NCBI GenBank assembly: GCA_964484655.1
Contig: CAZAFA010000002.1
Span: 123,860-187,859, forward strand
Length of the DNA: 64,000 nucleotides
Source of the DNA: an uncultured Candidatus Saccharibacteria bacterium
Lineage (GTDB): Bacteria; Patescibacteriota; Minisyncoccia; UBA6257; 2-01-FULL-56-20
Reading direction: 5' to 3'
Part shown: one piece after another, positions 25,479 to 47,974 of the stretch
Layout of the letters: every line of letters starts with the position of its first letter
Numbering within the stretch: the stretch's first letter is position 1
Made by a program: the position numbers and the translations under genes
Notes under the pieces: model-generated
What the model was told of the DNA's origin: nothing
What the model saw: the letters and a program-made list of their open reading frames with translations, nothing else
Databases searched by the model: none

Positions 25479-25625
25479 GTGAGGCGTGTTGATCAGAAGA
25501 GGAGGTCTCGTTGCGGAGGTATTGTACGGGCTGAAGGTCCCGCGTCAAAGTTTTCCACAGACCAGGAAACAGAACCCGCGAGCTGTCCATTTACATCCGG
25601 AAACCCCTCCTGTATGCTCGGCCCC

Positions 25626-25760
25626 ATGTCAGTGACCTACCAGCCCAAGAAGCGCAAGCGCGCCCGCACCCACGGGTTCCTTACGCGCAGCAGCACGCCG
25701 GGGGGTCGCCGCGTGCTCCAGCGCCGCCGGCGCAAGGGACGCGCCAAGCTCTCCGTCTAG
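25626..25760 (+). CDS. rpmH: 50S ribosomal protein L34
   Basis: [21 protein letters not shown]...; 44 aa. Confidence 0.9.
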
Positions 25761-25778
25761 GAGGGCTTTTTCGCCGTC

Positions 25779-26808: not shown

Positions 26809-27223
26809 GGAATTCGTCCGCGAGCTGGTAGCGCGGCTCGGCTTCCCCGAGGCCGGCGTCACGGCTGACGCGGAGACCCGCAAGGGCGAGGTGACCGTGC
26901 TCATCGAGCTCGAGGGACGCGATTTGCAGGAGGCGGTCGAGGCGCTCAACCACCTCGCGGCGCGCTACGCCGAGAAGATCGAGCTCCCCTCGGTGTTCTT
27001 CGATATCAACGGCTATCGCGCGGAACGCGAGCAGCTGATCCTCAAGCTCGCGGAGGCGGCGGCAGAGAAGGTCCGGCGCTCAGGCGGCGTCGTGGAGCTG
27101 CCGAGCATGAACTCGTACGAGCGCCGGCTCGTGCACGGCTTCATCGGCGACCAGGAAGGCGTCGAGAGCGAGAGCGCCGGCCTCGGCAAGGAGCGGCGCG
27201 TGACGATCCGGAAAGGCTCCTAG
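26792..27223 (+). CDS. Jag/KhpB-like R3H RNA-binding protein
   Basis: C-terminal R3H: YERRLVHGFIGDQEGVESESAGLGKERRVTIRK. Confidence 0.75.
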   Translation: MSRPLEEFVRELVARLGFPEAGVTADAETRKGEVTVLIELEGRDLQEAVEALNHLAARYAEKIELPSVFFDINGYRAEREQLILKLAEAAAEKVRRSGGVVELPSMNSYERRLVHGFIGDQEGVESESAGLGKERRVTIRKGS

Positions 27224-28359
27224 ATCTCCGACTTGTACAGCTTGTCGCTGACGCGGTCGGTGTAATAGATCGCATTCCCTACCACCTGCAGGCGCGTCGC
27301 GTCGAGGGCGAGCGGAGGCGCGATCGTGAAATCCACCTGCTTGGTATCCAGGTTCACGCCGACCAGGATGTCGTCGGTGAAGGCCTCATAGCGCAGCCAG
27401 GCGTCAGGCAGCTCGAGTCGCTGGAAGGCGTCCTGGTCGCGCGGCACCGCGCAGACGAGATAGGGCGTCGTCGAGGTACCGATGTTCGACAATGAGGCGA
27501 ATACGCACTTCTGCGGCACAGTCGCAAAAGCCAGCTTCGCGGTCGGGACGTAGTCTGAGATGATTCGCAGGATAGCGCCGCGGCCGGGAATCCTCCCTTC
27601 GATGGAGATGCCGTTCCTGCCAGTGCCGTCCCAGAGAGCGTCGAACCCGTTGCCGCCTCGCGCGGCGAGCGTGACGCGCTTGCTCGCGATGTCGATCGCC
27701 CATGCGCTTCCCTGCGAGAAGGCGTTCGGCTTGTCCGAGACGATGATCGTTCCCGCTGCCGGCCAGGAGATGGCAGCGTCCCCGAGCGCGAGGGACGTGA
27801 CGGTCTGCACGGCGCGTCCCGTGCCCGCGTCGTAGATGGCGATGGCCGTCTTGCCGTTCTTCTCGTTCGGGATCAGCGCGGCGATCTGCGAGCCGCGCGG
27901 AGACCAGGTCGCGCCGCGGAATCCGCCGGGAATCACGCGCCAGGAAGCGGTCACTATGTCGAATACGTTCACCTCGCTTCGGGGCTGTCCGCCGATGAGT
28001 ACCAGTATCTTGCTACCGTCGCTCGAGAAGGTCGCGGAGGCGAGATCGGCGATCGGGCTCGCCGAGAGGGAAATGACGCTTAATCCGTTAGTCCGCGTGA
28101 TCTTCCCTTCCCGGCTCATGGAGATGACCGTGCCGTCCTCGGAAGCATGGAATGCGATGACGGGATCAGAGGATACGGTAGACGAGGCAAGGCTGGACTC
28201 GTCAGGCTGTAGAGAGGCGAAATCGGCGCCGATCTCGGGAAGCGTGCCCGAGGTGTCCGTTTCCGATGATGAGCGGTTCTTGATGAGGTAGGCCGCGACA
28301 GCAATCAAGCCGATCAGGATGACGATTGCCAGCACGAGGAGGATCCGGCGGCGGTACAT
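27220..28359 (-). CDS. membrane-anchored TolB-like beta-propeller (PD40/WD40-like repeats)
   Basis: N-terminal TM (ILLVLAIVILIGLIAVAAYLI), then repeated strand-turn blocks rich in G/S/D/W typical of PD40 propellers. Last gene of the T4SS-like gene run. Confidence 0.5.
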   Translation of the reverse strand: MYRRRILLVLAIVILIGLIAVAAYLIKNRSSSETDTSGTLPEIGADFASLQPDESSLASSTVSSDPVIAFHASEDGTVISMSREGKITRTNGLSVISLSASPIADLASATFSSDGSKILVLIGGQPRSEVNVFDIVTASWRVIPGGFRGATWSPRGSQIAALIPNEKNGKTAIAIYDAGTGRAVQTVTSLALGDAAISWPAAGTIIVSDKPNAFSQGSAWAIDIASKRVTLAARGGNGFDALWDGTGRNGISIEGRIPGRGAILRIISDYVPTAKLAFATVPQKCVFASLSNIGTSTTPYLVCAVPRDQDAFQRLELPDAWLRYEAFTDDILVGVNLDTKQVDFTIAPPLALDATRLQVVGNAIYYTDRVSDKLYKSEI

Positions 28360-28380
28360 GGGTGAAGTATAAGCTATTGC

Positions 28381-28818
28381 CTAGAAGTCCTGGCTTTCTG
28401 CCAGTCTCTTGGCTATGTCCTCCGGCACGCCGACCTCGACGAGCAACTCGTATTCCCAGGCTCCGCCGGTATTGATGAGAAGCACCCAGCGACCCTTGTC
28501 GTCCTTGCGCATCAGGGCCTGGCCTCCGCCTACGCCATCGGACCAGTCTTGAAGCGCGTAGTTCCCGGCGATACGCGTTTTGCCATATTCGAATATGTTC
28601 GTATCGACATCATCCATCTGTATGCGGAGGTCGTCGATGACCCTGCCCGTCGGACTGAAGTCGGTCGCGGGAGGCTGGTTCAACGGAATCTCCGGCAACG
28701 CTCCCGCGTCGGGAGCGTCGACGATCGCAGGCTCCTTCTGCGAGAGGCGCACGTAGGCAGCGAGAGCGATGCCGATGAAGAGCAAGGCGAGGGCCGCGAT
28801 GAGGATGATTCTCTTCAT
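28381..28818 (-). CDS. small secreted/membrane-anchored hypothetical protein
   Basis: N-terminal hydrophobic signal (MKRIILIAALALLFIGIALAAYV). Confidence 0.45.
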   Translation of the reverse strand: MKRIILIAALALLFIGIALAAYVRLSQKEPAIVDAPDAGALPEIPLNQPPATDFSPTGRVIDDLRIQMDDVDTNIFEYGKTRIAGNYALQDWSDGVGGGQALMRKDDKGRWVLLINTGGAWEYELLVEVGVPEDIAKRLAESQDF

Positions 28819-28825
28819 GTGGATA

Positions 28826-29659
28826 TTATTTCAGGACGCGATAGATGCGGTAAGGGCCTCCTCTAGGGTAGGGTCCGCCATTGAAATAGAAATCAGGAGC
28901 GCTGCGCCAGACGAACTTTTTCTGGCCTGAGGAATTCGAGATGACGCTCGTACACCCCTGATTAAGGCAGATGCCGGTGTGATTCGACCTGGATCCGGTC
29001 ACGGCCACGATGTCTCCGCATTTGGCGTCCGATTGGGAGATCTCCTGGCCACGACCACCCCGGAATATGCTCTCCATGCCTCTGACGGTATTCCCCACGG
29101 GGATGAGACCCGCATTTTTCATGATATTGCTGACAGACCAAGCGCATGCCTGCCTCCCCCCTCCCGGTCCGGAACTGGTATCCGTCCCGTAATATGCATT
29201 CGCTGCATTGCAGATGAGTCCGGGGATATTGTCGGCTCCGCCGATCTGCTGGACCTGCTGGTCCGTGAATCCTGCCCGCATGTCCTTGATGGAGTATCCG
29301 CCGAACGAGCTCTCCACCTTCGAGTCCCGTATCCGGGGAAGCTCGAGGTAGTTGAGCCCGGGGTTGATGATCCCGAGGAGCGTCGCCGCCCCCACCAGCA
29401 GCAGGAGGCCGATGAGCGCCTGCACGATCCGGTCCCAGGCGTCGGCGAGCTTCCCCGGGTTCCCCCGCGAGGCCGTGTACTCCACCGCCCCGTAGACGAT
29501 CGAGGCCACCGCGAGGATCGAGGCCGCCCCGAGCGCCAGCAGGTACCCGTTCTGGATGAACCCGAGGATCCCGTACTGGTTGATGTCCACCGGGCCGGGC
29601 ACGGCGGTGATGACGCGGAAGGCGTCGGCGGCGTGCGCGGGAGAGACGAGCGATATCAC
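28826..29659 (-). CDS. CHAP-domain peptidoglycan hydrolase with N-terminal membrane segment
   Basis: Catalytic Cys in QACAWSVSNIM and His in SNHTGICLNQGC; spacing and context match the CHAP (Cys,His amidohydrolase/peptidase) fold. Confidence 0.6.
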   Translation of the reverse strand: MISLVSPAHAADAFRVITAVPGPVDINQYGILGFIQNGYLLALGAASILAVASIVYGAVEYTASRGNPGKLADAWDRIVQALIGLLLLVGAATLLGIINPGLNYLELPRIRDSKVESSFGGYSIKDMRAGFTDQQVQQIGGADNIPGLICNAANAYYGTDTSSGPGGGRQACAWSVSNIMKNAGLIPVGNTVRGMESIFRGGRGQEISQSDAKCGDIVAVTGSRSNHTGICLNQGCTSVISNSSGQKKFVWRSAPDFYFNGGPYPRGGPYRIYRVLK

Positions 29660-29661
29660 GA

Positions 29662-30351
29662 TCAGAACGTCGCCGCGGGAAGCACGCGCACGGATCCGCG
29701 CACGGATTCTTCCTTGTTCTGGGGATGCGTGATTGAGAGGCTTAGGAGGACGGCCTCAGGCGGACCTTCTACGGTGAGGACGAGCTGCTGGGGATTCTCG
29801 TTAGCGGAGGGGGGCTGGTTGTCCACGGACCAGCGGTAGATGAGGTCCGTGGCCCTGATGACATTGAATGCGTACGGCACCGCGACGAAGGTGTTCTCGC
29901 CCTCGCTCAGCCGCGGGCTGCTGATGGGGCGTATGACCGCCTTCGGTTTGGTCAGAGGCACGGATATGGACTTGAGCGTGTCCGTGAAAGGCGCGCCGAT
30001 GATCTCAACGCGGGCATCGAGGCTGTCTTGATGGAAGCGCTGGATCGGAACAGTGATCGCCTGCAGGCCGAAGCCGGTCTCGTAGAGCTCGTCGTTCACG
30101 TACCAGCGCACCTCGTATCGGGAAAGGTCAGCCGGCTGCCCGTTCACCAGGGCTTCTGCCAGGATGATGACCGTTCCTCCGCCAGCGGCGGCCACCCTGC
30201 CCTGATAGCTGGCCGGCGCGAAGCCGTTGCTGCGCCAGGACATCATGATCTCGCTGCTCGCGGACTGCCGGGCGACCGGGGTCTGGGCAAGCGCGGTCCG
30301 GATGCCCGCCAAGGACGCGACAAGCGCCAATAACGCGAGCAGCCTGTGCAT
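29662..30351 (-). CDS. secreted hypothetical protein
   Basis: Signal peptide MHRLLALLALVASLAGIRTALAQ. Confidence 0.45.
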   Translation of the reverse strand: MHRLLALLALVASLAGIRTALAQTPVARQSASSEIMMSWRSNGFAPASYQGRVAAAGGGTVIILAEALVNGQPADLSRYEVRWYVNDELYETGFGLQAITVPIQRFHQDSLDARVEIIGAPFTDTLKSISVPLTKPKAVIRPISSPRLSEGENTFVAVPYAFNVIRATDLIYRWSVDNQPPSANENPQQLVLTVEGPPEAVLLSLSITHPQNKEESVRGSVRVLPAATF

Positions 30352-30368
30352 GGGCGGATTATACCCGA

Positions 30369-31160
30369 TTACGAGGAGTTAGGCGTATTATGGGCCCTGC
30401 GTTCCGCCTCGCGCGTCGCCTGTTCGCCGGAGACGTCGATGTTGGCCAGGAGCTCAGTGAAGCCAGGATTGATCTCCCGCTCGACGTCGGCATATATGTC
30501 TGGGCCTGAGTCCCCGTCGGGGCGGTTACGGAGCTTGCCAGGGATGCGCTGGCTCTGCGTCGCGATCCGCTGACGATGCCGTTCAGGGAGGCCGCGGAGC
30601 TTCCCCGGAAGCTTCCGGTTGATACGGTTCCATTCGTGGTCGAACTGCTTGAGGCGTTCCTCTGACGCCGCCCCGAAGATCTTGTTCTTCGAGAGGCGGC
30701 TTCCCGGCTTGCCTCCTCCTGCAAGGGTCCCCTTCTGGGTCATCCTTCCGCGAGCTCCAGTCGGGACCTTGCCCTTCGGAGCCGGCACCTTCTCGGCAAC
30801 CCGCCGGAGCGTCTCGTTCCTGTCGATGGCGATAACTATGAGGATACCGAGCGTATAGAGCGGGAGGAGATCGACGATAGGAATCAGCTCAGCAAGCCAT
30901 GTAAGTACGTTGGCTGCGATCTGCCGGAACTGCGAAGCTCCGACGTAATAGAGATATCCGATGATGGCGATCTCGCAGATCCAGGCGATCGCATCGGTGA
31001 TCGGGATGCCGAGTTCCGCGTAGTTTATCGCGTCCAGGACTATCGTGAATATGAGCAGCGCGACTGCCCCGATCGTGCCGATCTTATGCTGCTTCGCCGC
31101 CGCGTGCTCACGATCGGCTTCGGATGGTATGCCCAGGGCCTTTTCCTGGTATGGGTCCAT
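30369..31160 (-). CDS. hypothetical integral membrane protein with basic C-terminal tail
   Basis: About 3 TM helices, then an R/K-rich region; T4SS-locus context. Confidence 0.45.
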   Translation of the reverse strand: MDPYQEKALGIPSEADREHAAAKQHKIGTIGAVALLIFTIVLDAINYAELGIPITDAIAWICEIAIIGYLYYVGASQFRQIAANVLTWLAELIPIVDLLPLYTLGILIVIAIDRNETLRRVAEKVPAPKGKVPTGARGRMTQKGTLAGGGKPGSRLSKNKIFGAASEERLKQFDHEWNRINRKLPGKLRGLPERHRQRIATQSQRIPGKLRNRPDGDSGPDIYADVEREINPGFTELLANIDVSGEQATREAERRAHNTPNSS

Positions 31161-31163
31161 CTT

Positions 31164-32885
31164 CTATATGAGCCCGGATTCCTCCAGGAGCTGCTGCGGG
31201 TTGGTGGTGATGAGCTTGTCCTCGTAGAACGAGGGGATGATCTGGATCGCGATATGCCGCTGTCCGGCGAAGAAGAGGCCGGTGCCGACCTCGGCGGTCA
31301 GCAGCAGGTTCTTCTCCGAGTCGGTCAGGTTGAAGGCCTTGCCGACGATGTCGATCGTCGCCGGAGCCTGCTTGAGGAGCAGCTGCGAGGACGAGTTCGT
31401 GATGATCGGGCGTCCGAACGGCGAGCGCAGGAAGTCTTCGACGTCCTGCGTGATTGTCGAGACGCCGAGATAGTACTTGCGCGCGCGCTTCACGAGCCCG
31501 AAGAGGAAGTTCGCCGAGTCCTCGTTCTTCATCATGATCCATGCCTCGTCGATGATGAGGATGCGCTTCTGGAACTGGGCTCGGATGAGGTTCCAGATGA
31601 AGTTCAGGATGACGTACATGGCGATCGGGCGGAGCTGCTCTTCGAGGTCGCGGATGCAGAAGACGATGAGGCGGTTGCTCAGGTCGATGTTGGTCGCCTT
31701 GTTCATGAAGCCGGCGAAGCTGCCCTCCGTGTACTTGTAGAGCCGCTCGGCGAGGGCGCGGCCGCCGTCGATGCTCCGCAGGACCGTCTCGAGGTCCTTA
31801 AGGACCGGCGGCTGGGCGTTGGCGAAGTCCTCGCCTGCGACGATCTCGCGGCTGGCGTAGGTCTCGGTGATGGCGCGGTCGATGAGCGCGTCCTCCTCGT
31901 TGGTGATGTTGCCGAGCATGAGGCGGACCAGGCCCGCGACGGAGACGATATGGCTGCGCAGCACGTCGGACGCCGCCTCGTCCTTCGGGATGATCGGGAT
32001 GTCGAACGGGTTGATCGTGTGCTCGCTCGTGAGCGAGATATTGAAGAAGCTGCCGCCGAACGCCTCCGTCAGGCGCTGGTACTCGTTCTCCGGATCGATG
32101 ACGATGACGTGCGTGCCCATCATCAGGGAGCGGATGATCTCGAGCTTGGTCGCGTAGCTCTTGCCGGAGCCGGACTTCGCGAAGACGACCTGGTTCGCGT
32201 TCTCGAGGCTGAAGCGGTCGAAGATGACGAGGCTGTTGTTGTGGCGGTTCACGCCGTACAGGATCCCCTCCTCGCTCATGAGGTCTTCCGAGACGAAGGG
32301 GTAGAAGCTGGAGAGCGGGCCCGAGTTCATCGGCGAGGTAACGTTGATCTTGTCCTGCGCGAGCGGGACCGTGCTCAGGAGTCCCTGCAGCTGCTGGAAG
32401 AGCGCCGGCTTCACGTAGACGAGCTTGGCCTCGAGGATCGAGACGACCTTGTTCTCGAGCTTGGCGAGCAGCTGCTCGGACTCGGCGTAGATCGTGATGT
32501 AGACGCCGACCGTGAAGAGGCGCTCCTCTGCCTGCTGGAGCGTGTCGCGGAGCGATTCCACGTTGTCGAGCGCGGTCTCGAGCATCGGGTCGCGGACCAG
32601 GCCCTTGTCCTGGTTGGTCGCGAGCTGGGCCTCGACCTGCGCCGCCTTCTTCCGGAGGTTCTTGAGCGCGAGGCCCGTATCGAACGGATTGACGAATATG
32701 GCGATGTCGAGCAGCTCGGCGAGGTTCACGATCGGCTCGAACCATCCCGTGACGAGGTAGTTCGGGTAGCCGAAGAAGAACAGGGTCTTGGCGTACTTCG
32801 TCCCGACCTTGAGGAACGAGGAATGCACCTCGACGCCTGCGGGCGAGATGATCGGCTTGGCAGCGTTGAAGGCGGAATCAGGCAT
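31164..32885 (-). CDS. type IV secretion system ATPase, VirB4/TrbE/CagE family
   Basis: Walker A FAKSGSGKSYATK, Walker B-like ILIIDEAW, VirB4 C-terminal ATPase domain pattern; 573 aa. Confidence 0.85.
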   Translation of the reverse strand: MPDSAFNAAKPIISPAGVEVHSSFLKVGTKYAKTLFFFGYPNYLVTGWFEPIVNLAELLDIAIFVNPFDTGLALKNLRKKAAQVEAQLATNQDKGLVRDPMLETALDNVESLRDTLQQAEERLFTVGVYITIYAESEQLLAKLENKVVSILEAKLVYVKPALFQQLQGLLSTVPLAQDKINVTSPMNSGPLSSFYPFVSEDLMSEEGILYGVNRHNNSLVIFDRFSLENANQVVFAKSGSGKSYATKLEIIRSLMMGTHVIVIDPENEYQRLTEAFGGSFFNISLTSEHTINPFDIPIIPKDEAASDVLRSHIVSVAGLVRLMLGNITNEEDALIDRAITETYASREIVAGEDFANAQPPVLKDLETVLRSIDGGRALAERLYKYTEGSFAGFMNKATNIDLSNRLIVFCIRDLEEQLRPIAMYVILNFIWNLIRAQFQKRILIIDEAWIMMKNEDSANFLFGLVKRARKYYLGVSTITQDVEDFLRSPFGRPIITNSSSQLLLKQAPATIDIVGKAFNLTDSEKNLLLTAEVGTGLFFAGQRHIAIQIIPSFYEDKLITTNPQQLLEESGLI

Positions 32886-33549
32886 CGGTCTTTTCGGGGG
32901 CGGCTACGGGGAGGTTGTCCCGCTCGACCGAGTCGGGATTGTAGAAGTTGTAGTAGAGCTCGATGAGCTCCTGGTCGCTCAGGACCGTCGTCTCGAGGCC
33001 GATCTGGTGGATTCCCTCCACCACTGCGTCAACGCGCTGCTGGAGCTGGCTCGCGTTCTCCTTGAACTGCTGCTCGGCGTTCGCCTTCCCCTGCTCGGGG
33101 TCCTTCTTGCGTCCGAAGAACGGCAGCGAGCTCGTGAGGGAGGTCGCCGAAGGCAGCGTCGTCGGATAGAACGGGACCACGACCAGGAAGATCTTGCGCA
33201 TGATGGCGAACTGCGCGACGAAGTCCCTGACGAACTTCTGGTACTCCGTGATCTGGTTGCGGAGGAGGCCGCTCGGCTCGTTGTTGCGACGGGATTCGAG
33301 CATGGCAAGGTAGCGCTCGATGTTGACCTTCCGGGAGTGCACGACGATCTGGAGCTGATAGTCGAGGCTGTTGAGGAATCCCTGGAAGGACTGGATCATG
33401 ACCCCCTGCTCCTCCTCGCTCTTGAGCGCGAAGTTCGTGCCGCCGACCATGACCACGCGGAGCAGGCCGCCGGCCTTGAGGATGACGATGCCGTCGCGGA
33501 TGTCCGCGATGTCGACCAGGTCCTGGGAATTCGCCGCGTTAGCCGCCAT
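32878..33549 (-). CDS. hypothetical protein (T4SS-locus)
   Basis: Coupled (8-nt overlap) to the VirB4 start; no recognisable motif. Confidence 0.4.
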   Translation of the reverse strand: MAANAANSQDLVDIADIRDGIVILKAGGLLRVVMVGGTNFALKSEEEQGVMIQSFQGFLNSLDYQLQIVVHSRKVNIERYLAMLESRRNNEPSGLLRNQITEYQKFVRDFVAQFAIMRKIFLVVVPFYPTTLPSATSLTSSLPFFGRKKDPEQGKANAEQQFKENASQLQQRVDAVVEGIHQIGLETTVLSDQELIELYYNFYNPDSVERDNLPVAAPEKTDA

Positions 33550-33583
33550 ATGCGCTCATTATTCGCGATAGAGTGCGGCCGCG

Positions 33584-34090
33584 CTAGGCGCTGAAGTCCA
33601 CGCGCTTGGCGGCGCGGAGCTCGCCGGTGACCTGGCGGAACACCTCGAAGCGGCTGGAAGGCGCTTCCGTGGCGAGCTGCTTCGCCTCGACCTTGCTGCC
33701 GGTCTCCACGTACTGCCAGGCCTTCTTCAGGCTCGTGCCCGAGATGATGCTCTCCAGGTTGAGCCCGCTTCCCGTCGTGCTCATGGTCTCAGGCGTCTTC
33801 GGCAGGTTCGGGCGCTCTGGCTGCCAGAGATAGAGCTGCGGGTTCCAGTAGAAGAAGAAGCCCAGGACGGCGATCTTCGAGAGCGGCTGTCCGTTGACCT
33901 TGAGGAAGGCCATGCTGCCTCCCGCTGCGCCAACGAGGATCGCGAATACGATGAAGAAGAAGCTCTGGAATACGAAATACAGGGCGAAGATGACGCCTGC
34001 CGTGATACAGAGATAGATGAACTGCCGGATCGTGAACGGTCCGGCGATCTTGTCCTCCGTGTCGATGAACTGGGGTACCTGGTACTGCAT
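33584..34090 (-). CDS. small two-TM membrane protein, possible VirB3/PrgI-like
   Basis: Two adjacent hydrophobic helices (FIYLCITAGVIFALYFVF / FFFIVFAILVGAAGGSMAF). Sits just upstream of the VirB4 module, as VirB3-like genes do. Confidence 0.45.
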   Translation of the reverse strand: MQYQVPQFIDTEDKIAGPFTIRQFIYLCITAGVIFALYFVFQSFFFIVFAILVGAAGGSMAFLKVNGQPLSKIAVLGFFFYWNPQLYLWQPERPNLPKTPETMSTTGSGLNLESIISGTSLKKAWQYVETGSKVEAKQLATEAPSSRFEVFRQVTGELRAAKRVDFSA

Positions 34091-34111
34091 GCGCCTTCTG
34101 GCGCAAGTCTA

Positions 34112-35104
34112 TCACGCCGCAGGCGGCGGCGAAGCGGGAGGAACGTCCTGGATCGGAGCGGGCGCCGGCATCGGCGGAGCGCTCGCAGGCTCGCTGTAGT
34201 TCACGGTCGGGAGCGGCTTGCGGCCGAAGCGGCGCGCGTGCCACGGAGCGATACGGTGCAGGAACGTGCCGAAGATTCCGCTCGCAGGGGGATCGTCGTT
34301 CGGGGGCGTCGCCTGCTGCGTGGTGACGACCTCGATGCTGGGTTGGACGGCGGGCGTGTCGAAGACGGGTGCCGGGGCAGCGGAAAGCGGGACGGGCGCC
34401 GGAATCTCCGCGGGGAGCGGCTGCGGCGGCACGTAGTCGACCGCGCTGATCTCCGGAAGCGGCGTGGCGCGCTCGACGAACACCGAGCGGAACTCCGCGT
34501 CCTTGCGCGGCGCGGCAGGGATGCCGAGGTCGATATGTGCTGCCCGCTGCGGGCCAGGGGTCGCCACAGTGCTGCGGGAGATGTCGCCGGTGTCCTTGAT
34601 GTCGAAGCGGGCGGTCGGCAGAGCGGTTTCCGAGGCTATCGTATCGCGATAGAGCGGGACGGGTGCCGGGATCCCGGAGGGCATCGGGAAGCCCTGCGGG
34701 GGCTTGATGTCCCCGACCGGAAGGGATGCGGGAACGACAGGCGATACCGGGACCGGCAGCGGGAGCTCGGTGGCGCCGCTCGGCTCGGTCGAGAGTTCGC
34801 CGACGCCGATGCCGAAGGCGACGAAGTCGCGCGCGAGCGGCATGAAGATGCGCGCCTTCACGTCCTCGTACAGCGCCGAGGCCTTCTCGCTGGGGAGGCC
34901 CAGCTCGTCCTCGATCACGTCGCGAAGGTCCGAGAAGTCGAGGTCCTTGATCTCGACGTCGAAGAGAATGACGGGGAGGTCCGTCTCGGATTCCGGAAGC
35001 CCGTACTTCTGCTCCAGGTCGGCGATGATCTGGTCCATCTCGTCGCTCCAGAACCAGTCGCGGATGCGACGGGGTACGGATTGGAATTTCTCCTCGATAG
35101 TCAT
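34112..35104 (-). CDS. proline-rich hypothetical protein
   Basis: Acidic N-terminal domain, then P/A/V-rich repeats (PLPVPVSPVVPASLPV, PAPVPL...). Confidence 0.45.
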   Translation of the reverse strand: MTIEEKFQSVPRRIRDWFWSDEMDQIIADLEQKYGLPESETDLPVILFDVEIKDLDFSDLRDVIEDELGLPSEKASALYEDVKARIFMPLARDFVAFGIGVGELSTEPSGATELPLPVPVSPVVPASLPVGDIKPPQGFPMPSGIPAPVPLYRDTIASETALPTARFDIKDTGDISRSTVATPGPQRAAHIDLGIPAAPRKDAEFRSVFVERATPLPEISAVDYVPPQPLPAEIPAPVPLSAAPAPVFDTPAVQPSIEVVTTQQATPPNDDPPASGIFGTFLHRIAPWHARRFGRKPLPTVNYSEPASAPPMPAPAPIQDVPPASPPPAA

Positions 35105-35113
35105 AGGAATCTT

Positions 35114-37465
35114 TTATTTTCCCTTCTCTTTACCCTTCGCTTTTTCCGCCCGGCTCTCACGGCGTGCTTTGCTAAGCTGTTCCATCTTGGCTGTATCAAT
35201 ACGACCAGTGAAATTCACATTATTTTTAAGTGTCTTATACATTGACGTGATGCGAGTCTTAGCATCCTTTATTGAGATACGGTTTGTTTTCTGCTCTGAA
35301 GTGAGATTGACATTGGAATCTTCGTTGTAGAAGAAATCACCAAAAAGGCCAATTTCTTTCTTCTTTTCTTCGGAAAGGGCTTCGAACTTCTGTATTTTCT
35401 GTCGAGCTCTTTCGATTACTTCCGTAATTCGCTCAATTTGTTCGATATTCATATCACCAATTTGCTTGAGCTGAGAATTATTGAGAGCTGTTGTACGTAG
35501 AACGACGCCCTGTCGGGTTTCCAATCCTTCATCCTTTTGATAGTCGAATAGCGAATCATCGAGTGCAAGAGTTGATATATCGTCCCCTTTCACCGAAGGA
35601 ATTTGTGCTGCGACTGCTTCCTGAGTCGTCATTGTACGACTCTTGTCTTTCGTCTTGCCGCGCGGGGCGAGGGCTGCAAGTTGCGGAGCCGAGGGAAGGA
35701 TTTCCTTCAGTACCCCGGAATCCTGGGCCCGCTTAAGTTGACGCTCGAGATCTTTCTTATAAGCTTCTTCGACTTTCTTATATTGCTCACTAGATTGCAG
35801 TCTTTTCTTCTCTTCCTTCACCGCCTTCTTGAGATCCTTACCTTTTAGGCCATCAGCCTTCGCTTTCTTCTCGTAGTCAGCTAGTGCTTTCTCGACTTCC
35901 GGGCTCGCAGATGTCGCGAGGCCGCCGAGCGCCTTCTTCTCCTTGAGGAGCTTGAAGATGGCCGCCTCGCGGTCGGGGTTCGCGGCGAGCTGGCCGGAAG
36001 CCAGCCGGCGCCGCTCCGCGAGCAACGCGCTGGTAGTGAGGTTCTTGAGGCTGTCCTGCTCGTCCTGCACGCGCTGCTCGACCGACTTCTTGTTCGCGAC
36101 GCCGGCGTCCGCCATGTAGCGTCCTACCGTACCCGCGCCTGCCATGCGCGCGATCCTGCTGTTAGAGGAGAGCGTGGAGAGCCTGCTGCCCATGCGCTGC
36201 AAGCGCGAGTTCCCATCCTTGTCCTTGCCCGACGTGCGCACGCGATCGAGCGTCCGCATGCCTGCCGCCGACGCTCTTCGCTTGACAGAGTTACCTACGG
36301 AAGCGAACGCAGCCTTGCCGGAGTCCATGAACTTGATGCCGAGCTTCGAGGAGAAGTACAGGCCGCCGTAGAGCGTCCCGGAGATGAGGATGAAATTGAG
36401 GCTGCTCGTGATGATCGGCTTCGCCGCCGCGCCGAAGGTCTTGAAGAGGAACCCGCTGATGCCGCCGCCAGCGGTATCGGCGCTGCCGAGACCCGTCAGC
36501 TGGGCGTCGTCGAGGACGTGGGCGCCATTGATGAAGGCCGCGGTCTTCATGCTCAGGTAGAGGAAGAACATCGCCATGGGGGCGAAGAAGGTCCACTTCA
36601 CGAACTTGTCCGACCAGTAGCTCACGAGGCCCCTGCCGAAGGGGAATATCCAGGCGAGCCATACCGCGGGCATGATGATGAGCAGGAGCGAGAGCGTCAC
36701 GTAGCGCGCGGCGAATGCGGCGAGCATGATGCCGAAGAAGATCACGAGCAGGATGCTCATGATGACGGTCATGTAGATGCCGGCGATCGCCGCGAACATG
36801 CCTGCGGTGTCGGCAGCGAACTTGCTCGTCGCGTCCGAGAAGATAGTCTCCTCCTTCACCTCGGTGCTGAATCCGGCGTTCAGGAAGGCCTTCTGGGGAT
36901 TGAAGGCTCCCGCGAGGTTGTCCGCGAATTCGAGGATGCCCACCCCGATATCCGCCGTGGGATTGGGGACGGAATTGTTGATGAAGAATTCCGTAAGCCT
37001 GTCCGAGAAGTTGATGGCGGTGCCTGCCAGGATGAGGCTGAAGTTCACGCCAATGGCGGCGATCACGATCTTCCAGAGCAGCTGCTTCGCGCCGTAGGTG
37101 TCGTACCGGATGATCGTCGCGACCGCCATGATGATCACCGCGGCGACGAAGGCAATGTTCGCGAAGGCGAGGACAATCGAGAATCCGAACTGGACCGAGG
37201 TTGAATTGACGAGGTCGAAGTTGAGCTTGAGGAGGAACTGGAAGAAGAAGACCTCGATGATCGTGATGATGTTCAGGAGGATGCCTATGAGGTAGGCGAT
37301 GTAGTAGGCAACCTTCTGGACGAGCGAGAAGGCGACATCGGATATGCCCGTGAGTTCGCCGACCCAGCCCAGGATGCCCGCGTGCGCTTCTTGAGGAACC
37401 AGAAAGGCAGCGCCTGCGAGGACCGCAGCCAGGACGAGAGAGACGGGTTTGATGCGCTTATTCAT
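35114..37465 (-). CDS. VirB6/TrbL-like polytopic membrane protein with long K/E-rich coiled-coil C-terminal domain
   Basis: About 8-9 TM helices in the N-terminal 420 aa. The C-terminal 360 aa are Lys/Glu-rich heptad-like; this AT-rich DNA is at 35150-35900. Confidence 0.65.
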   Translation of the reverse strand: MNKRIKPVSLVLAAVLAGAAFLVPQEAHAGILGWVGELTGISDVAFSLVQKVAYYIAYLIGILLNIITIIEVFFFQFLLKLNFDLVNSTSVQFGFSIVLAFANIAFVAAVIIMAVATIIRYDTYGAKQLLWKIVIAAIGVNFSLILAGTAINFSDRLTEFFINNSVPNPTADIGVGILEFADNLAGAFNPQKAFLNAGFSTEVKEETIFSDATSKFAADTAGMFAAIAGIYMTVIMSILLVIFFGIMLAAFAARYVTLSLLLIIMPAVWLAWIFPFGRGLVSYWSDKFVKWTFFAPMAMFFLYLSMKTAAFINGAHVLDDAQLTGLGSADTAGGGISGFLFKTFGAAAKPIITSSLNFILISGTLYGGLYFSSKLGIKFMDSGKAAFASVGNSVKRRASAAGMRTLDRVRTSGKDKDGNSRLQRMGSRLSTLSSNSRIARMAGAGTVGRYMADAGVANKKSVEQRVQDEQDSLKNLTTSALLAERRRLASGQLAANPDREAAIFKLLKEKKALGGLATSASPEVEKALADYEKKAKADGLKGKDLKKAVKEEKKRLQSSEQYKKVEEAYKKDLERQLKRAQDSGVLKEILPSAPQLAALAPRGKTKDKSRTMTTQEAVAAQIPSVKGDDISTLALDDSLFDYQKDEGLETRQGVVLRTTALNNSQLKQIGDMNIEQIERITEVIERARQKIQKFEALSEEKKKEIGLFGDFFYNEDSNVNLTSEQKTNRISIKDAKTRITSMYKTLKNNVNFTGRIDTAKMEQLSKARRESRAEKAKGKEKGK

Positions 37466-39785
37466 CGAGCAGAGTGAGCGGCAGGTTGCACGCCCTGTCC
37501 TTGAGGTTGTCCCGGGCGTCCTGGGCGAGCGACTGCATCTGGCCGTTCCGCGTGGTGGCGCGCGTCGCGAGAGTGGCGACCTGCGAATTGATGATGTCGA
37601 GGGAGCCGATGAGATCGGAGATCGCCATAGCGCTCGTCGCCGTATTGATGGCTTCCGTCGTGGAAGCGAGCTGCGCGATCACGGTCCCGATCGAGGTGCC
37701 GTCGGTGCTGACGCGCGGCGCGATCCGGTCTATGGCTCCGAGTCGCTGGCTCGCCGTCTCGGCGAGCGCAGGGCAGGTAGCGCCGACGGATATCAGGAGC
37801 GGCTGGGTCGAAGAGGCGTGCCCCGTCCAGGCCGCGATGTCGTTGCGGACGCTGCTCGCGCGACCCTGGTGGGCAGTAGCGAGCTGCAGGGCCTGCGCGC
37901 GGACCGAAGCGAGGCTCGACTGGTCCTCGCCGCCCCCGCTGGTGCTCGTGCCGTTGCCGTTCCCCGATCCGCCTCCGCTTCCGGACTCGCCGTTGAACAG
38001 GCCGAGCAACCCTCCTACCGCGAGATTGGTCAGTCGCGAGATCGCAGCATCCACTACCGCGGCGACGAGGCCGGCGAGATCGTTCGCGTTGACCACGTTG
38101 TCGAGCGTGCCGCCCAGCGACTTGGATACCTGGTCGGCGACAGCGCCGCCCGGAGTCGTCTGTTGCCAGCCGTCCGAGGCACACATCTCTACCTCGCAGG
38201 TCTGAAGATAGGGGTCACCGCCGTCGTAACAACGGATAAGCCTACGGAAGTTAGGGTCTCGCCTGAGCTCGTCAGCTTCGCGTTCATCAGCAGTTATAAC
38301 CTCCGTTTTAACGCACCGCCTCATACCCGTGTAGCCGCGGTTCGACTCCGCATTCGTTGAAGCGGATTCCTTCGCGCCGGCCGCTTCGTGCATGGCGGTC
38401 TCGCCGGCTACGACGATTGCGCCCCAGGCGTTGTTCTGCGGTTCGAGGATGAGAGTCGCGAATCCGATCCAGCCTCCTGACCTGAAGTCCTCGTAGAAAT
38501 CCTTCACGCTCGCGACGATCTGGTCCAGGGTGCAGGTGAATTGCTGATAGGGGTCGCGGGAGCCGCTGACGCTATTGGGGGCCGTAGCTCTGAGGAAGTC
38601 GGTCGTGAATGCGCGCAGGTTCTGGCAGAGCTTCGGCTCGATCTTGTTGATGAGCGTGTTGACCGCGCCTACCGCGCTGTCCTTAAGGAAGCCCTTCCAG
38701 TTGGTGATGAACTGCGGCTTACCGCCTCCTTGTACCCATTTGATCGTCTGTTGGATGAGACGGCCTACGATCTGGTTCTTGAGGATCTGCAGCGCGATGC
38801 TCTTAAGTTCCCTCACAATGAGCTGACCCCATGTGCCGTAGTCCGCGATGCCGTTGATGATCGTCTTGACGATGTGCCCGAAGTCGATGACCGGCCAGCC
38901 CGCGTTGGCGCGCGGGATACCAAGCAGCGAAGCCAGGAGGAGCGGCTTGTGCGCTCCTGAAGAGAGCGACTCGTACTGCAGCTGTTCGGCTTCCGCTTGG
39001 AGCTTGTTGCCCTCGTACGCGAGGAGCTCCGGATACTTCGTCGTGAAGACCACCGCCTTGAGCGGGTCGGTCGTGTAGTCGAGGTCGGTGAGCTTCCGGT
39101 TGAGCTCGAAGTAGGTCAGCGCCTGCTCGTGGAGCTTCTGCGCGGGAGCGGGCACGACCGCGTTGTAGAGCTTCTCCTGCGCCTGCGCGAGGAGGAAGTT
39201 GCTCGCCTCGATCGCCGCGGGCGTCGGCTGGCTCCCGCTCCGCGCCATCACTGCGCTCATGCCGCCGGACGTGGTGCTCGCCATGGAGAAGGTCTCCTCG
39301 AGCGTCGAGAGGTAAGCGTCGAGCTGCTCCTGGGTGTAGTTCTTGGCGACCTTCAGTCTGCTGCGGTCGATGGCGTACGTGGTCGGCGTGAGGGCAGCGT
39401 CGGTGACGTACTGGTCCACGACGTCCTGGAGGTTGTTCGGGAGGAGCACGCCGGTACCTTGGGTCAGGTCGGGGCCTTCAGGGTTGGCTTTGACGAAGTT
39501 GTAGGCGAGGCCCTTCGCGAGCTCGTCCGTGTAGTTCCCCTCGACATCGGTCCGCGGCGTGAACTCGGCTGCGAGGTCGTAGCCCTCGATGCGCGTCGTC
39601 GCGATATCCTCTACGAAAGCGCGGTCGCCGATCTTCGGGACCTGCTTCTGCGCCTGCTGCGTAGCGGCCGCAGGTCCCTCTCCTTTCTGCCGCGCGAGGC
39701 TCGTGAAGGCCAGGGACGCGGATCCGGCCAGGAGCGCGAGCACCAGGAACGTCGTGATGAGTTTACGGAGCTCGTGAGCCTGCAT
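37458..39785 (-). CDS. large secreted/surface protein of the T4SS-like locus
   Basis: Start placed at MQAHELRKLITTFLVLALLAGSASLA (signal/anchor). A G/S/N-rich linker (GESGSGGGSGNGNGTSTSGGGED) separates two domains; several conserved Cys residues. Confidence 0.55.
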   Translation of the reverse strand: MQAHELRKLITTFLVLALLAGSASLAFTSLARQKGEGPAAATQQAQKQVPKIGDRAFVEDIATTRIEGYDLAAEFTPRTDVEGNYTDELAKGLAYNFVKANPEGPDLTQGTGVLLPNNLQDVVDQYVTDAALTPTTYAIDRSRLKVAKNYTQEQLDAYLSTLEETFSMASTTSGGMSAVMARSGSQPTPAAIEASNFLLAQAQEKLYNAVVPAPAQKLHEQALTYFELNRKLTDLDYTTDPLKAVVFTTKYPELLAYEGNKLQAEAEQLQYESLSSGAHKPLLLASLLGIPRANAGWPVIDFGHIVKTIINGIADYGTWGQLIVRELKSIALQILKNQIVGRLIQQTIKWVQGGGKPQFITNWKGFLKDSAVGAVNTLINKIEPKLCQNLRAFTTDFLRATAPNSVSGSRDPYQQFTCTLDQIVASVKDFYEDFRSGGWIGFATLILEPQNNAWGAIVVAGETAMHEAAGAKESASTNAESNRGYTGMRRCVKTEVITADEREADELRRDPNFRRLIRCYDGGDPYLQTCEVEMCASDGWQQTTPGGAVADQVSKSLGGTLDNVVNANDLAGLVAAVVDAAISRLTNLAVGGLLGLFNGESGSGGGSGNGNGTSTSGGGEDQSSLASVRAQALQLATAHQGRASSVRNDIAAWTGHASSTQPLLISVGATCPALAETASQRLGAIDRIAPRVSTDGTSIGTVIAQLASTTEAINTATSAMAISDLIGSLDIINSQVATLATRATTRNGQMQSLAQDARDNLKDRACNLPLTLLDE

Positions 39786-39839
39786 AGTCTCTGATGAATT
39801 GTACGTTAAGCAGGCGCTACCGCACAACGAAAATGGGGA

Positions 39840-40613
39840 TTACGTCCAGAGACCGGTTCGGCCCAGCGCCTCGATCCGCTCGACGGACAGGTCGTGAGGC
39901 CGCGCCTGGTCGGGAAGTCCCGCTTCCCGGAGGATCTCGATGAGCCGTTCCTTCGTCATGCCAGGAAGGGCGAGGTTGTTCGCAAGCACTTTCCGGGGCT
40001 GCGAGAAGGCGGCGCGCGTCACGGCTTCGTACGCAGGCCGGTCCGCGACCTGCGTCCCCTTCCTTATAAAGGAGAGGATCGCCGACTCTACCTTGGGCGG
40101 GGGCGAGAACGCCGAGCGCGGCACCTTGGCGACGATCTCCGTCTCGGCCCAGAGGCCGGCGAACGCGGCGAGCTTGGTGAAGCGCCCCGGAGCCGCACTG
40201 ATGCGTTCGGCGACCTCGAGCTGCATCAGGAGCGCGGCTCGCGCCGGAGGGTTGGGCAGGTCGCCCATGAGGCGGACCAGGTAGCTGGTGAGGTAGTACG
40301 GGATGTTGCCAGCGAGCTTCCACGAGTCTCCCAGCGAAGCGGTCGTCTCGGCGAGCACCTCGCGCACGTCACCGTGCACGACGGTCACGCGGTCGTCGCT
40401 CTCGTAGCGGCGGACGAGCGAGGCCGCGAGGCGCACGTCGCGCTCGATGCAGATCAGGCGCGCGATCGGCGCCTCGGCGATGAAGCGCGTGAGCTCACCG
40501 TGGCCGGGGCCGACCTCGACGACCGTGTCCCCTTCCGTCAGCGCGAGCGCGCGCACGAGGGCCCGGGCGGGACCGGGCGTCGAGAGGAAATGCTGACCGA
40601 GCGGGGCGGGCAT
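39840..40613 (-). CDS. rsmA: 16S rRNA (adenine1518/1519-N6)-dimethyltransferase RsmA/KsgA
   Basis: LGQHFL, VVEVGPGHGELT (SAM motif), ...NIPYYLT. Confidence 0.85.
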   Translation of the reverse strand: MPAPLGQHFLSTPGPARALVRALALTEGDTVVEVGPGHGELTRFIAEAPIARLICIERDVRLAASLVRRYESDDRVTVVHGDVREVLAETTASLGDSWKLAGNIPYYLTSYLVRLMGDLPNPPARAALLMQLEVAERISAAPGRFTKLAAFAGLWAETEIVAKVPRSAFSPPPKVESAILSFIRKGTQVADRPAYEAVTRAAFSQPRKVLANNLALPGMTKERLIEILREAGLPDQARPHDLSVERIEALGRTGLWT

Positions 40614-40614
40614 G

Positions 40615-42384
40615 TCACCAGAGTACGTCAATGTAGCGCTCCTCGTCATCGAGCGAGAGGTTCCGCCGCCGCCCTTCCATGACGAGATACTCCTCGGGGA
40701 TCTCGAGGATGAAGCGGCTCGGCACGTGCACGAAGCTGATCGAGAGCTCGTGCCGCGCGCGCGTCATCGCGACGTAGAAGAGGCGGCGTTCCTCCTCGAG
40801 CTCCGCCTCGGTGACGAGCGCGCGGCTGTGCGGCATCGTCCCCTCGCTCGCGCCGGCGATGTGCACGCGGTCGAACTCGAGGCCCTTGGCCATGTGCGCC
40901 GTCATGAGCGTGACGCCCTGCGGCGCGTCCTGGCCGCGCGTGTCGGTCGCCTGCACGAGCGAGACGTGCTCGAGGAACTCGGCCACGTCGGCGAACGTTG
41001 CCGCGAACTTGCGCAGCTCGCCGACGTTCTCGATGCGGTCCTCGGCGTTGTCGAACGTCTCCTCAAGATGTTCCGCGTACCTGCTTTCCGCGAGGAAGGT
41101 GTCGATGATCCGTGCCGGCTCCGCCGGGCCGAGCGCGCGGAGAGCGTCGATAAGCGGCAGGCCGCGGCGCTTACGGAACGTCTTGAGGAGGCGGTCCGCG
41201 CCGAGCGTGTCCTGCGGATTCGCCGCGACGCGGATGGCGGCGAGCACGTCGCGCACCTCGAGGCGGTCGTAGAACTGCACGCCGCCGTAGACGTGATAGG
41301 GCACGCGCGCCCGGACCAGGGCGTGCTCGAGCGCCCGCGCCTGCGCGTTCGTTCGGTAGAGCACCGCCGCGGTCCCCTCGCCCCTCCTTATATAGGCGCC
41401 GAGCTCCTGCGCGATCCAGAGCGCTTCGTCGAGCTCCGTGTAGTGCTCGATCACCTTGATGGGAGGGCCCTGCTCCTTCGTGGAGACCAGGGTCTTCGGC
41501 AGCTGGTTGCGATTGTTCCCGATCACCGCGTTGCTCGCGTTGATGATCGTCTGGGTCGAGCGGTAGTTCTGCTCGAGACGCACGACCTTCGCGTTCGCGA
41601 AGTCGCGCTCGAATGCCATGAAGATCCCGATGTCGCTTCCCCGCCAGCTGTAGATGGTCTGATGGTCGTCGCCCACGACGGTCAGGTGCCCGCGCGGACC
41701 GACGAGCGCGCGCACCAGGCGGTACTGCGCCTCGTTGATGTCCTGGTACTCGTCGACGAGCACGTAGCCGATCTCCCCGCGGTAGCGGTCGCGCACATGC
41801 TCGTGCTCCTCGAGGATGCGCGCCGGCCAGATGATGAGGTCGTCGAAGTCGAACGCGTTGTTCTCGCGCAGCGCCTCCTCGTACTGCCGATAGGCCTGCA
41901 CCGTCGCGACCGCGGCGGAGGACATATCGCGCTCAAGCTCGGACAGCGGCGTCGCGCCGTTCTTGATCCCGCTGATCCGGTTGCGGAGCGTCGCCGGCGT
42001 GACCTTCCCGGGCATCGTCTTCGCGATGCGTCGGAAGAGGGTCATCATGTCCCCTTCGTCGTAGATGGTGAACTCGCGCGTGCGTCCGGCGAGCGGCGCG
42101 TGCTTGCGGAGGAAGCGGGCGCCGAAGCTGTGAAAGGTGCCGATCCAAGGCGTCATGCCCGGTCGGGCGCCATGGAGCGCGCGCTCGCGCATCTCCTTGG
42201 CAGCCTTGTTGGTGAACGTCACCGCGATGATGGTCGCTGGATCGACGCCGATCTCGAGCAGGTGCTTGATGCGCTCGGTGAGGGTGCGCGTCTTCCCCGT
42301 CCCGGCGCCCGCGATGATCAGGAGCGGGTCGGTGCCGGCTTCGACAGCCGCTTTCTGGGCGGGATTGAGGGGCGTCTGGCTCAT
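40615..42384 (-). CDS. uvrD: ATP-dependent DNA helicase, UvrD/PcrA/Rep family (compact 589 aa)
   Basis: Walker A AGAGTGKTRTLT, motif II VLVDEYQD, motif VI region; SF1 helicase. Confidence 0.9.
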   Translation of the reverse strand: MSQTPLNPAQKAAVEAGTDPLLIIAGAGTGKTRTLTERIKHLLEIGVDPATIIAVTFTNKAAKEMRERALHGARPGMTPWIGTFHSFGARFLRKHAPLAGRTREFTIYDEGDMMTLFRRIAKTMPGKVTPATLRNRISGIKNGATPLSELERDMSSAAVATVQAYRQYEEALRENNAFDFDDLIIWPARILEEHEHVRDRYRGEIGYVLVDEYQDINEAQYRLVRALVGPRGHLTVVGDDHQTIYSWRGSDIGIFMAFERDFANAKVVRLEQNYRSTQTIINASNAVIGNNRNQLPKTLVSTKEQGPPIKVIEHYTELDEALWIAQELGAYIRRGEGTAAVLYRTNAQARALEHALVRARVPYHVYGGVQFYDRLEVRDVLAAIRVAANPQDTLGADRLLKTFRKRRGLPLIDALRALGPAEPARIIDTFLAESRYAEHLEETFDNAEDRIENVGELRKFAATFADVAEFLEHVSLVQATDTRGQDAPQGVTLMTAHMAKGLEFDRVHIAGASEGTMPHSRALVTEAELEEERRLFYVAMTRARHELSISFVHVPSRFILEIPEEYLVMEGRRRNLSLDDEERYIDVLW

Positions 42385-47971: not shown

Positions 47972-47974
47972 CAG

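Follow-up and report, generated by a model that had tools for sequence, protein, structure and literature searches.

Beside the origin-type genes of a patescibacterial chromosome lies a long run of secretion-like genes, and the question it raises is whether they make up a conjugative element, a machine for importing nucleic acids, or a secretion apparatus that belongs to the chromosome itself. The run was found on contig CAZAFA010000002.1 (assembly GCA_964484655.1, an uncultured Candidatus Saccharibacteria bacterium), in a stretch of 64,000 nt (positions 123,860 to 187,859, about 65% GC) which was analysed whole and is referred to here as the window. From position 42384 down to 27220 of the window 13 consecutive open reading frames (ORFs) follow one another on the minus strand, namely uvrD, rsmA and 11 more. 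We put at roughly 85% the probability that the run encodes an origin-proximal type IV secretion system (T4SS) of Patescibacteria with the Paceibacteria-type gene order, a monoderm system derived from the MPF-FATA class of mating-pair formation (MPF) apparatus of Gram-positive bacteria, with the DNA-processing parts lost. Chromosomal, non-conjugative systems of this sort have already been described across the Patescibacteria, also called candidate phyla radiation bacteria (CPR bacteria), and so no new kind of system is at issue. What goes beyond published work are the unannotated accessory families of the run, chiefly that of a 775-aa envelope protein, and also a fusion of a pilin with a putative hydrolase whose C-terminal domains seem to be swappable.

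The motor gene virB4 (31164..32885, minus strand, as are all genes of the run) encodes 573 aa corresponding to the C-terminal part of a VirB4 ATPase, with Walker A GSGKS and Walker B ILIIDEAW. Its product scores 378 bits (cut-off 325) against NCBIfam NF045971, the CD1110 family of VirB4-like conjugal transfer ATPases, and matches Pfam P-loop_TraG at 2.7e-29, in keeping with a preliminary description of this DNA that had named a VirB4 from its GSGKS motif. The NF045971 match spans profile positions 187-733 of 752 only, and the N-terminal domain is found as a gene of its own, a TrsD-like protein of 223 aa (32878..33549) whose ORF overlaps virB4 by 8 nt. Recognisable homology had been denied to this protein, wrongly as it now appears, given matches to NCBIfam VirB4_plasma (1.7e-11, profile positions 101-209), to TrsD (1.2e-6) and to positions 11-93 of the CD1110 profile; it also bears a precomputed label, PF26593 TraC-like. 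For comparison, one genome per GTDB species was scanned, which gave 80 related loci from Paceibacterota, Parcubacteria and similar metagenome-assembled genomes, and gene order was surveyed by tblastn and by iterative hidden Markov model (HMM) searches on the ORFs of these loci; the denominators of the locus counts are the loci with enough flank. In 66 of 72 loci the TrsD-like part has an ORF of its own, while in 6 it is fused to VirB4 (768-790 aa); the split of virB4 into two genes is no sequencing artefact. VirB4 homologues number more than 8000, the best 120 being 71-93% identical, and the named ones among these 120 are Patescibacteria, Parcubacteria or Liptonbacteria. Judged by its sequence, VirB4 is of the Firmicute CD1110/MPF-FATA type, a class placement made from the NF045971 score and the nearest relatives. 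Upstream of the TrsD-like gene lies prgI (33584..34090), encoding a two-transmembrane (TM) PrgI/VirB3-like protein of 168 aa, as had been noted earlier, which matches Pfam PF12666 PrgI at 4.8e-11 with 43.5 bits against a 27-bit cut-off and was detected by tblastn in 73 of the 80 loci.

A channel component is represented by a polytopic membrane protein of 783 aa (35114..37465), whose start overlaps the stop of the preceding 775-aa gene by 8 nt and whose gene was found in 41 of 50 loci. Here the case is one of fold. In a Foldseek search of the PDB with the AlphaFold2 (AF2) model (pLDDT 70.6) the top matches were R388 TrwI/VirB6 chains 8rt9_F, 8rtd_L and 7o3v_F/G/J, at probabilities of 0.91-1.0 and E-values of 0.075-0.56; TM(target) reached 0.50, over about 310 columns. 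Residues 421-783 (363 aa) form a K/E/R-rich, helical tail (K 12.9%, E 8.8%). We accept the protein as VirB6-like at the level of predicted fold, and with its charged tail it would be an "extended VirB6". A VirB6/TrbL-like protein with a K/E-rich tail of roughly 360 aa had been proposed before; its tail is confirmed and its VirB6-like character is supported by predicted fold, and the 8-9 TM helices then counted are probably about 6-8. PF19590 labels precomputed on four homologues of the protein could not be reproduced.

The window had been said to hold no pilin, which needs correcting. The 277-aa product of 28826..29659 has TM segments at residues 41-59 and 80-98, and residues 35-98 match PF18895 T4SS_pilin (2.1e-5, 24.9 bits), as do all 11 of 11 positional homologues (best 2e-10), one of which also matches TrbC/VirB2; NCBIfam Mbov_0395 pilin-like gives 1e-3. 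The pilin-family ORFs of related loci, found in 59 of 64, lie about 3 kb downstream of virB4. In our locus this VirB2-like pilin hairpin is followed by a C-terminal papain-like putative hydrolase. The C-terminal part aligns by phmmer with the CwlO NlpC/P60 domain (E 0.0085; GDIVAV..NHTGICL on GDLVFF..GHVGIYL, the His motif), the protein matches YebB papain-like at 0.0086, and a candidate Cys (ACAWSV) can be read in the sequence upstream. Where a CHAP-domain peptidoglycan hydrolase had been proposed, the wider NlpC/P60-CHAP papain-like superfamily is thus weakly supported, and the narrower family is not, since neither Pfam CHAP nor NLPC_P60 matches the protein at E<=0.01. Among relatives only the pilin part is common and the C-terminal domains differ, the partners of the hairpin elsewhere including Cys-rich modules and segments with HIHIQ/HIHV motifs (VanY/M15-like by eye). 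Such variety across species (loci L002-L081) points to a shuffling of domains on a membrane or pilus scaffold that stays constant.

The genes so far described belong to a tightly packed series. The first gene of the run is uvrD (40615..42384), encoding a UvrD-type superfamily 1 (SF1) helicase of 589 aa (Pfam UvrD-helicase 2.1e-77, UvrD_C 3.3e-63), and its ORF overlaps or abuts that of rsmA/ksgA (39840..40649; 16S rRNA dimethyltransferase, 269 aa, or 257 aa with a downstream ATG; Pfam RrnaAD 5.4e-42). From rsmA to the 775-aa gene the distance is 12 nt with a TTG start of the latter and 54 nt with the ATG from which 775 aa are read, and within the 11 genes behind rsmA the successive distances are -8, 9, 21, 34, -8, 3, 17, 2, 7 and 21 nt, so that the tight packing remarked on earlier is confirmed with 34 nt as the largest gap among them. 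All 13 ORFs show the coding signature of the genome (GC at third codon positions, GC3, 0.74-0.95). Terminator-like hairpins number 10 against 11.4 expected from shuffled sequence, which is no excess, and no sigma-70-like site was seen on the minus strand within the run. Because the gaps are at most 34 nt, two overlaps of 8 nt occur and terminators are not in excess, the run is probably read as one or a few long transcription units that include uvrD and rsmA. The GC content of the run, 0.585-0.632 per 2 kb over 28001-40000, lies a few points under that of the flanks at 0.64-0.70, and the most likely cause of this dip is composition, the encoded membrane and coiled-coil proteins being rich in K/I/F/N, rather than recent transfer. 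On the plus strand, with its start codon 39 nt from the divergent uvrD start, is an M23 peptidase gene (42424-43026). A few related loci likewise have an M23 peptidase gene in this divergent upstream position, and its product may act as a wall-hydrolase partner.

At its other end the run meets an origin-type neighbourhood (22900..27223) made up of dnaN (22900-24006, minus), dnaA (24135-25478, minus), rpmH (25626-25760, plus), rnpA (25779-26105, plus), yidC (26098-26808, plus) and jag/R3H (26792-27223, plus), named by Pfam with rpmH and rnpA recognised from their translations. The dnaA start is 1.7 kb from the end of the run, and rsmA lies inside the run. The DnaA-box consensus is not enriched (4 matches, 2.65 expected). 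The order uvrD, rsmA, 775-aa gene, 783-aa gene, Pro-rich gene, prgI, trsD, virB4, 4-TM gene, Ig-like gene, pilin gene, (small gene) and propeller gene, then jag and yidC, then dnaA and dnaN, is identical with its strands across related loci in dozens of Paceibacteria-type genomes. In 43 of 47 loci dnaA is within 10 kb of virB4, and in 44 of 47 yidC is on the opposite strand. Synteny in relatives, which the preliminary description had put forward as a check, thus gives the same order and the same origin-side place in most related species. Because the whole gene order and the chromosomal neighbours recur across relatives, the locus reads as a vertically inherited chromosomal system and not an integrated conjugative element (ICE). 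Some 9 kb from the run is a gene for a PilB-type ATPase (16696-18354, minus; T2SSE 5.6e-110, with an MshEN domain), which places a type IV pilus motor and the T4SS both near the origin.

Conserved order bears as well on whether a functional coupling, by shared regulation and a shared task, ties uvrD and rsmA to the secretion genes. These two lie on the same strand with ORFs that overlap or abut, no terminator excess breaks the uvrD-rsmA-T4SS run, and rsmA is upstream of the T4SS genes in 34 of 46 loci, with uvrD upstream on the same strand in at least 25 of 46, a lower bound as loci were extracted to 10 kb. However, both are housekeeping genes that almost every bacterium has, conservation is not specific to these two given that synteny extends over the whole origin region, rsmA was not found upstream in 12 of 46 loci, and unrelated genes routinely share transcription units in compact genomes. 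Such coupling seems to us distinctly unlikely, and the linkage is most simply explained by a conserved origin-proximal gene order.

Whether the run could nonetheless be a conjugative element turns on what accompanies it. In Pfam searches of about 65 ORFs across the 64-kb window no match pointed to a relaxase, to a VirD4/TcpA coupling protein, to VirB8/9/10, to an integrase or to ComEC, which upholds the earlier observation that VirD4, a relaxase and VirB9/10 are missing from the window. A complete conjugative module (relaxase and type IV coupling protein, T4CP) nearby, which would have pointed to an ordinary ICE, was likewise not found within the 64 kb. The sole FtsK-like protein of the window (50150-52321, minus, 723 aa) has alpha, motor and gamma domains, and because of the alpha and gamma domains it is taken as the division FtsK and not a coupling protein. 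That the run is an ordinary integrated conjugative element, or its decaying remnant, which came to lie near the origin by chance could draw on the descent of the VirB4, PrgI and TrsD homologues from conjugative elements of Firmicutes and Mollicutes, on the GC content of the run (58-63%, flanks 64-70%) and on the tRNA genes about 5 kb upstream of it. Yet the 64 kb contain neither relaxase nor T4CP, and neither an integrase nor a repeat-bounded island; all ORFs of the run are intact, and most of the 80 species-level loci show its order beside the same neighbours on the chromosome, while the very strong conservation of VirB4 implies purifying selection and vertical descent and the GC dip fits the K/I/F/N-rich membrane and coiled-coil proteins encoded there. 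With relaxase, T4CP and integrase lacking in the 64 kb and the chromosomal position fixed, identity as an ICE was rejected, and we regard this origin as very improbable indeed.

The function of a chromosomal T4SS of this kind has been approached by genetics in Southlakia epibionticum, where transposon sequencing (Tn-seq) showed the T4SS (SEML1_0006-0019) and a pilin array to be essential for epibiotic growth, with coupling protein and relaxase not recognisable (Wang et al. 2023, PMC10633639). In a survey of 3,035 genomes most VirB4 proteins fall into a single clade nested within MPF-FATA, their partner is most often a TrsD-like protein, and PrgI, VirB6 and VirB2-like pilins (PF18895) are frequent; VirB1 (CD419) occurs near virB4 mainly in Paceibacteria, relaxases are rare, and the locus lies near dnaA, dnaN, rnpA, rpmH and ksgA (Quiñonero-Coronel et al. 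2025, PMC12102498). The main text of that survey mentions no UvrD, TolB or propeller, and VirB5 once, for a rare MPF-T-type locus. A 2025 review regards the patescibacterial systems as unique among monoderm T4SSs (PMC12857230). They are thought central to the lifestyle of ultrasmall host-dependent bacteria, being essential for epibiotic growth in the one species tested, and our locus offers a clean, complete example of the Paceibacteria type.

By the established architecture of T4SSs, hexamers of VirB4, with the TrsD-like partner and anchored via VirB3/PrgI, would supply the energy for assembling a channel based on VirB6 within the single membrane. The pilin-domain protein and the secreted accessory proteins might then build the extracellular part, a conduit or a structure for attachment that crosses the cell wall, which the putative hydrolase domain of the 277-aa protein would open, possibly together with the divergent M23 peptidase (42424-43026). 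By analogy with the Southlakia genetics, the machine would move macromolecules at the site of contact with the host cell and would not be a conjugation apparatus. With a CD1110-type VirB4, PrgI, a VirB6-like fold and no conjugation module in 64 kb, the earlier suggestion of a minimal monoderm or CPR-type T4SS, probably not serving classical conjugation, is sustained, and the DNA uptake then considered is one of several options for its function.

That option can be made specific, as a nucleic-acid import machine like Helicobacter ComB or archaeal Ced through which host DNA or RNA would feed a cell unable to make nucleotides, with UvrD processing the incoming strands. ComB works without a relaxase or T4CP, and the run, too, has neither; uvrD is upstream in at least 25 of 46 loci, and VirB4 gives a weak match to CedB (2.1e-12, far below cut-off). 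In ABY1, another class, comF, recG and radA are found in the neighbourhood of the T4SS (PMC12102498), and a 2026 preprint (10.64898/2026.06.21.733656) links VirB4 monophyly to feeding on host RNA, which it reports for a cultivated patescibacterium together with tubular structures at the interface that, in its view, may be T4SS pili. Against this, competence in Southlakia is due to type IV pili and ComEC, and deletion of comEC abolished competence and left viability unaffected, whereas the T4SS is essential (PMC12857230, PMC10633639). Nothing in the run was recognised as a DNA-binding protein or a nuclease, the uvrD-rsmA adjacency is explicable by the conserved origin-proximal order, and the direction of transport is not readable from sequence. 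Import of nucleic acids is therefore for us a possibility to be kept in mind, though a minority one.

Several points weigh against the reading of the run as a host-interface T4SS of the chromosome. No VirB8-like protein was identified, and other parts of the genome may encode a coupling protein or relaxase, the scan having covered 64 kb of a contig of 219,649 bp. VirB6 membership is a matter of fold similarity, with modest E-values (0.075-0.56) from a model of pLDDT 70; in 21 members of the 783-aa family there is no Pfam TrbL/VirB6 match (E<=0.1), and a sequence-profile search of the PDB with that family gave nothing meaningful. The pilin score of the 277-aa protein, 24.9 bits, is just under the Pfam cut-off of 26.6, and the assignment of its C-terminal domain as a hydrolase is weak. 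No sigma-70-like promoter was found in the 39-nt divergent gap between uvrD and the M23 gene (42385-42423). Finally, the function is extrapolated from Saccharimonadia, another class than that of the Paceibacteria-type loci.

Apart from the recognisable T4SS parts, the run encodes an accessory envelope set of six: the 775-aa protein, one protein rich in Pro, one with 4 TM segments, one that is Ig-like, a small one with an anchor, and the TolB-like propeller. In this locus at least six accessory genes that are unannotated in published surveys emerge as conserved, ordered components, and because they are conserved and ordered they are candidates for the extracellular part of the machine. They evolve far faster than VirB4, and a word-based search with the two large proteins (775 and 783 aa) gave no more than 17-22 homologues.

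The 775-aa protein (37458..39785, with an alternative TTG start at 39827) has no match in Pfam or NCBIfam and no sequence match in the PDB, which was searched with profiles from two alignments. It begins with an N-terminal TM/signal helix and a helical domain, and behind a strongly conserved core come a small beta domain, then a GS linker and finally a 3-helix bundle at the C-terminus; the GS-rich linker, seen earlier, is plainly visible in the sequence. The conserved core carries QQTIKWVQGGGKPQFITNWKGFL and four conserved Cys. As a family it is large, its profile reaching 5183 cluster representatives at E<=1e-3, with 953 left at E<=1e-30, and a tblastn search of 72,556 plasmids with the conserved core gave no match. 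The gene was found in 32 of 46 loci, always directly upstream of the VirB6-like gene and in overlap with it. The AF2 model has a mean pLDDT of 62 and is mediocre outside a helical domain and the confident C-terminal bundle (about 92), and Foldseek of the model against the PDB returned generic helical bundles only, all with E>0.1; ClyA-type pore-forming toxins (E 0.5-1.2) were considered as relatives in fold and judged non-specific. In some members of the family the C-terminus carries discoidin or PKD domains, as would suit a protein exposed at the surface.

Its place in the run suggests a further reading. In MPF-T systems (R388 TrwJ) virB5 occupies the place that the 775-aa gene takes here, directly upstream of the VirB6-like gene, and in relatives of the 775-aa protein only there are short matches (25-32 residues) to DUF4141, the best at 7.1e-5 with 22.6 bits where the cut-off is 30. 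The gene for DUF4141 adjoins traJ in Bacteroides elements (PMC10434189). The matching segment, of the type '..TAHA QWVVxDP..', is present internally in relatives P0201, P0228, P0230 and P0260 and aligns with residues ~290-320 of the 775-aa protein (38826-38916). Across the family there is an internal motif at about residue 290 (a hydrophobic stretch, A-x-A, then W/P-V-x-D) that resembles a signal-peptidase site with the N-terminus of a mature protein behind it, and this signal-peptide-like motif could be left over from a gene fusion or mark a site of internal processing. On account of the virB5-like position and of the DUF4141 hints with the signal-peptide-like segment, the family might be the missing VirB5-type stalk or pilus-tip subunit, a secreted TraI/VirB5-like module fused to an N-terminal anchored domain. 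The 775-aa protein is, however, more than three times larger than VirB5, its parts are not collinear with VirB5, and no sequence-level PDB match leads from the family to VirB5, TraC or TrwJ. We hold the proposal as speculative and rather unlikely; if true, then together with the exchangeable C-terminal domains of the pilin it would imply a monoderm VirB2/VirB5-type pilus bearing wall-degrading and host-binding modules with which to breach the host envelope.

The remaining accessory proteins are smaller. Between the VirB6-like gene and prgI, and always there in the 49 of 64 loci where iterative HMM searches found it, is the gene for a 330-aa protein (34112..35104) with a conserved N-terminal domain of ~95 aa, a variable Pro-rich region and no TM segment. 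Its Pro content is 16.7%, which bears out an earlier label, and no match was found in Pfam, NCBIfam or the PDB, the PDB profile search being made with the N-terminal domain. Directly downstream of virB4 is a 263-aa membrane protein (30369..31160) with ~4 predicted TM segments and a basic disordered tail, the TM region being conserved in 65 of 77 loci in that position, and no library match was obtained. All-against-all hhalign of eight cluster families revealed no hidden paralogy, with all probabilities <10%, and the 4-TM protein as a relative of VirB2 or VirB3 was dropped on the same figures. Next comes a secreted, beta-rich protein of 229 aa with a signal peptide (29662..30351), whose family profile has a weak match to an immunoglobulin (Ig) domain (CEA, E 3e-4); it probably consists of tandem Ig-like domains and is conserved in 61 of 72 loci. 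A small protein of 145 aa with an N-terminal anchor (28381..28818, TM residues 4-22) has no homologue in the 80 loci or the libraries, and we consider it fast-evolving. The last gene of the run (27220..28359), found at the end of the cluster in 51 of 59 loci, encodes an N-terminally anchored TolB-like beta-propeller of 379 aa, and its stop overlaps that of the convergent jag gene. The family profile matches 12 TolB chains between 7.7e-11 (4r40_A) and 1.6e-7 over profile positions 117-280, in agreement with the membrane-anchored TolB-like propeller described earlier. What is matched is the C-terminal six-bladed beta-propeller of the TolB of Tol-Pal systems, while the TolA-binding N-terminal domain is missing, its place being taken by a membrane anchor and a low-complexity linker, and the window has no tol or pal genes. 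Because the match is to the propeller only and there is no Tol-Pal context, the protein is of TolB-like fold and no TolB orthologue.

Elsewhere in the window a tRNA-Ile with the anticodon UAU (47899-47972, plus) lies beside a divergent tRNA-Gly(UCC) (47733-47804). Bacteria normally read AUA with a lysidine-modified CAU tRNA, and a dedicated UAU tRNA is unusual. A plus-strand ORF of 758 aa (50060-52336) was entertained as a novel protein and discarded, having no family match and being an antisense artefact of the minus-strand FtsK gene (50150-52321); further spurious ORFs, arising in the same way in this high-GC genome, are at 9629-10918, 12688-13506 and 61519-63417. An open frame of at least 893 codons (61321-63999, plus) runs off the window end and has a Pro-rich start and no Pfam match, and it may encode a large surface protein.

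Set against known systems, the run resembles Helicobacter ComB and archaeal Ced in having a VirB4-type ATPase with membrane channel proteins, no relaxase or T4CP, and a chromosomal place that is not mobile, and differs from them in that the CedB match is sub-threshold and no ComB- or Ced-specific components were recognised. With the stalk and pilus module of MPF-T (R388 TrwL/TrwJ/TrwI) it shares the VirB6-like fold, for which this module gave the top PDB match, the VirB2-like pilin hairpin and, in the 775-aa family, the weak motif of DUF4141 (Bacteroides TraI), and it departs from MPF-T in having no VirB7/9/10 core. The likeness to MPF-FATA conjugative systems (the CTn/Tn916-type CD1110 VirB4, PrgH/I/J/K of pCF10, TrsC/D/E of pGO1) extends to the passing of the CD1110 cut-off, PrgI and TrsD homologues, the lack of an outer-membrane core and a putative hydrolase encoded in the cluster. 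Unlike in these, neither a relaxase nor a coupling protein was found, and a VirB8-like protein and a PrgB-type adhesin were likewise not found; monoderm conjugation systems are without a VirB2-like pilin domain, whereas the run has one, and MPF-FATA elements are mobile, whereas this locus is chromosomal and fixed at the origin. The T4SS of the Patescibacteria clade differs from it in that Saccharimonadia and Microgenomatia have tandem pilin arrays where here a single pilin-domain gene is fused to a hydrolase-like domain, and the accessory genes of the run (775-aa, Pro-rich, 4-TM, Ig-like and TolB-like propeller) are not named in PMC12102498 or PMC10633639. The VirB6-like protein and the putative hydrolase would correspond to VirB6 and to the cell-wall hydrolase near virB4 in Paceibacteria, and common to both are a CPR-type VirB4 with a separate TrsD-like protein, PrgI/VirB3 and a PF18895 pilin, neither relaxase nor T4CP nearby, and a place beside dnaA, dnaN, rnpA, rpmH and ksgA.

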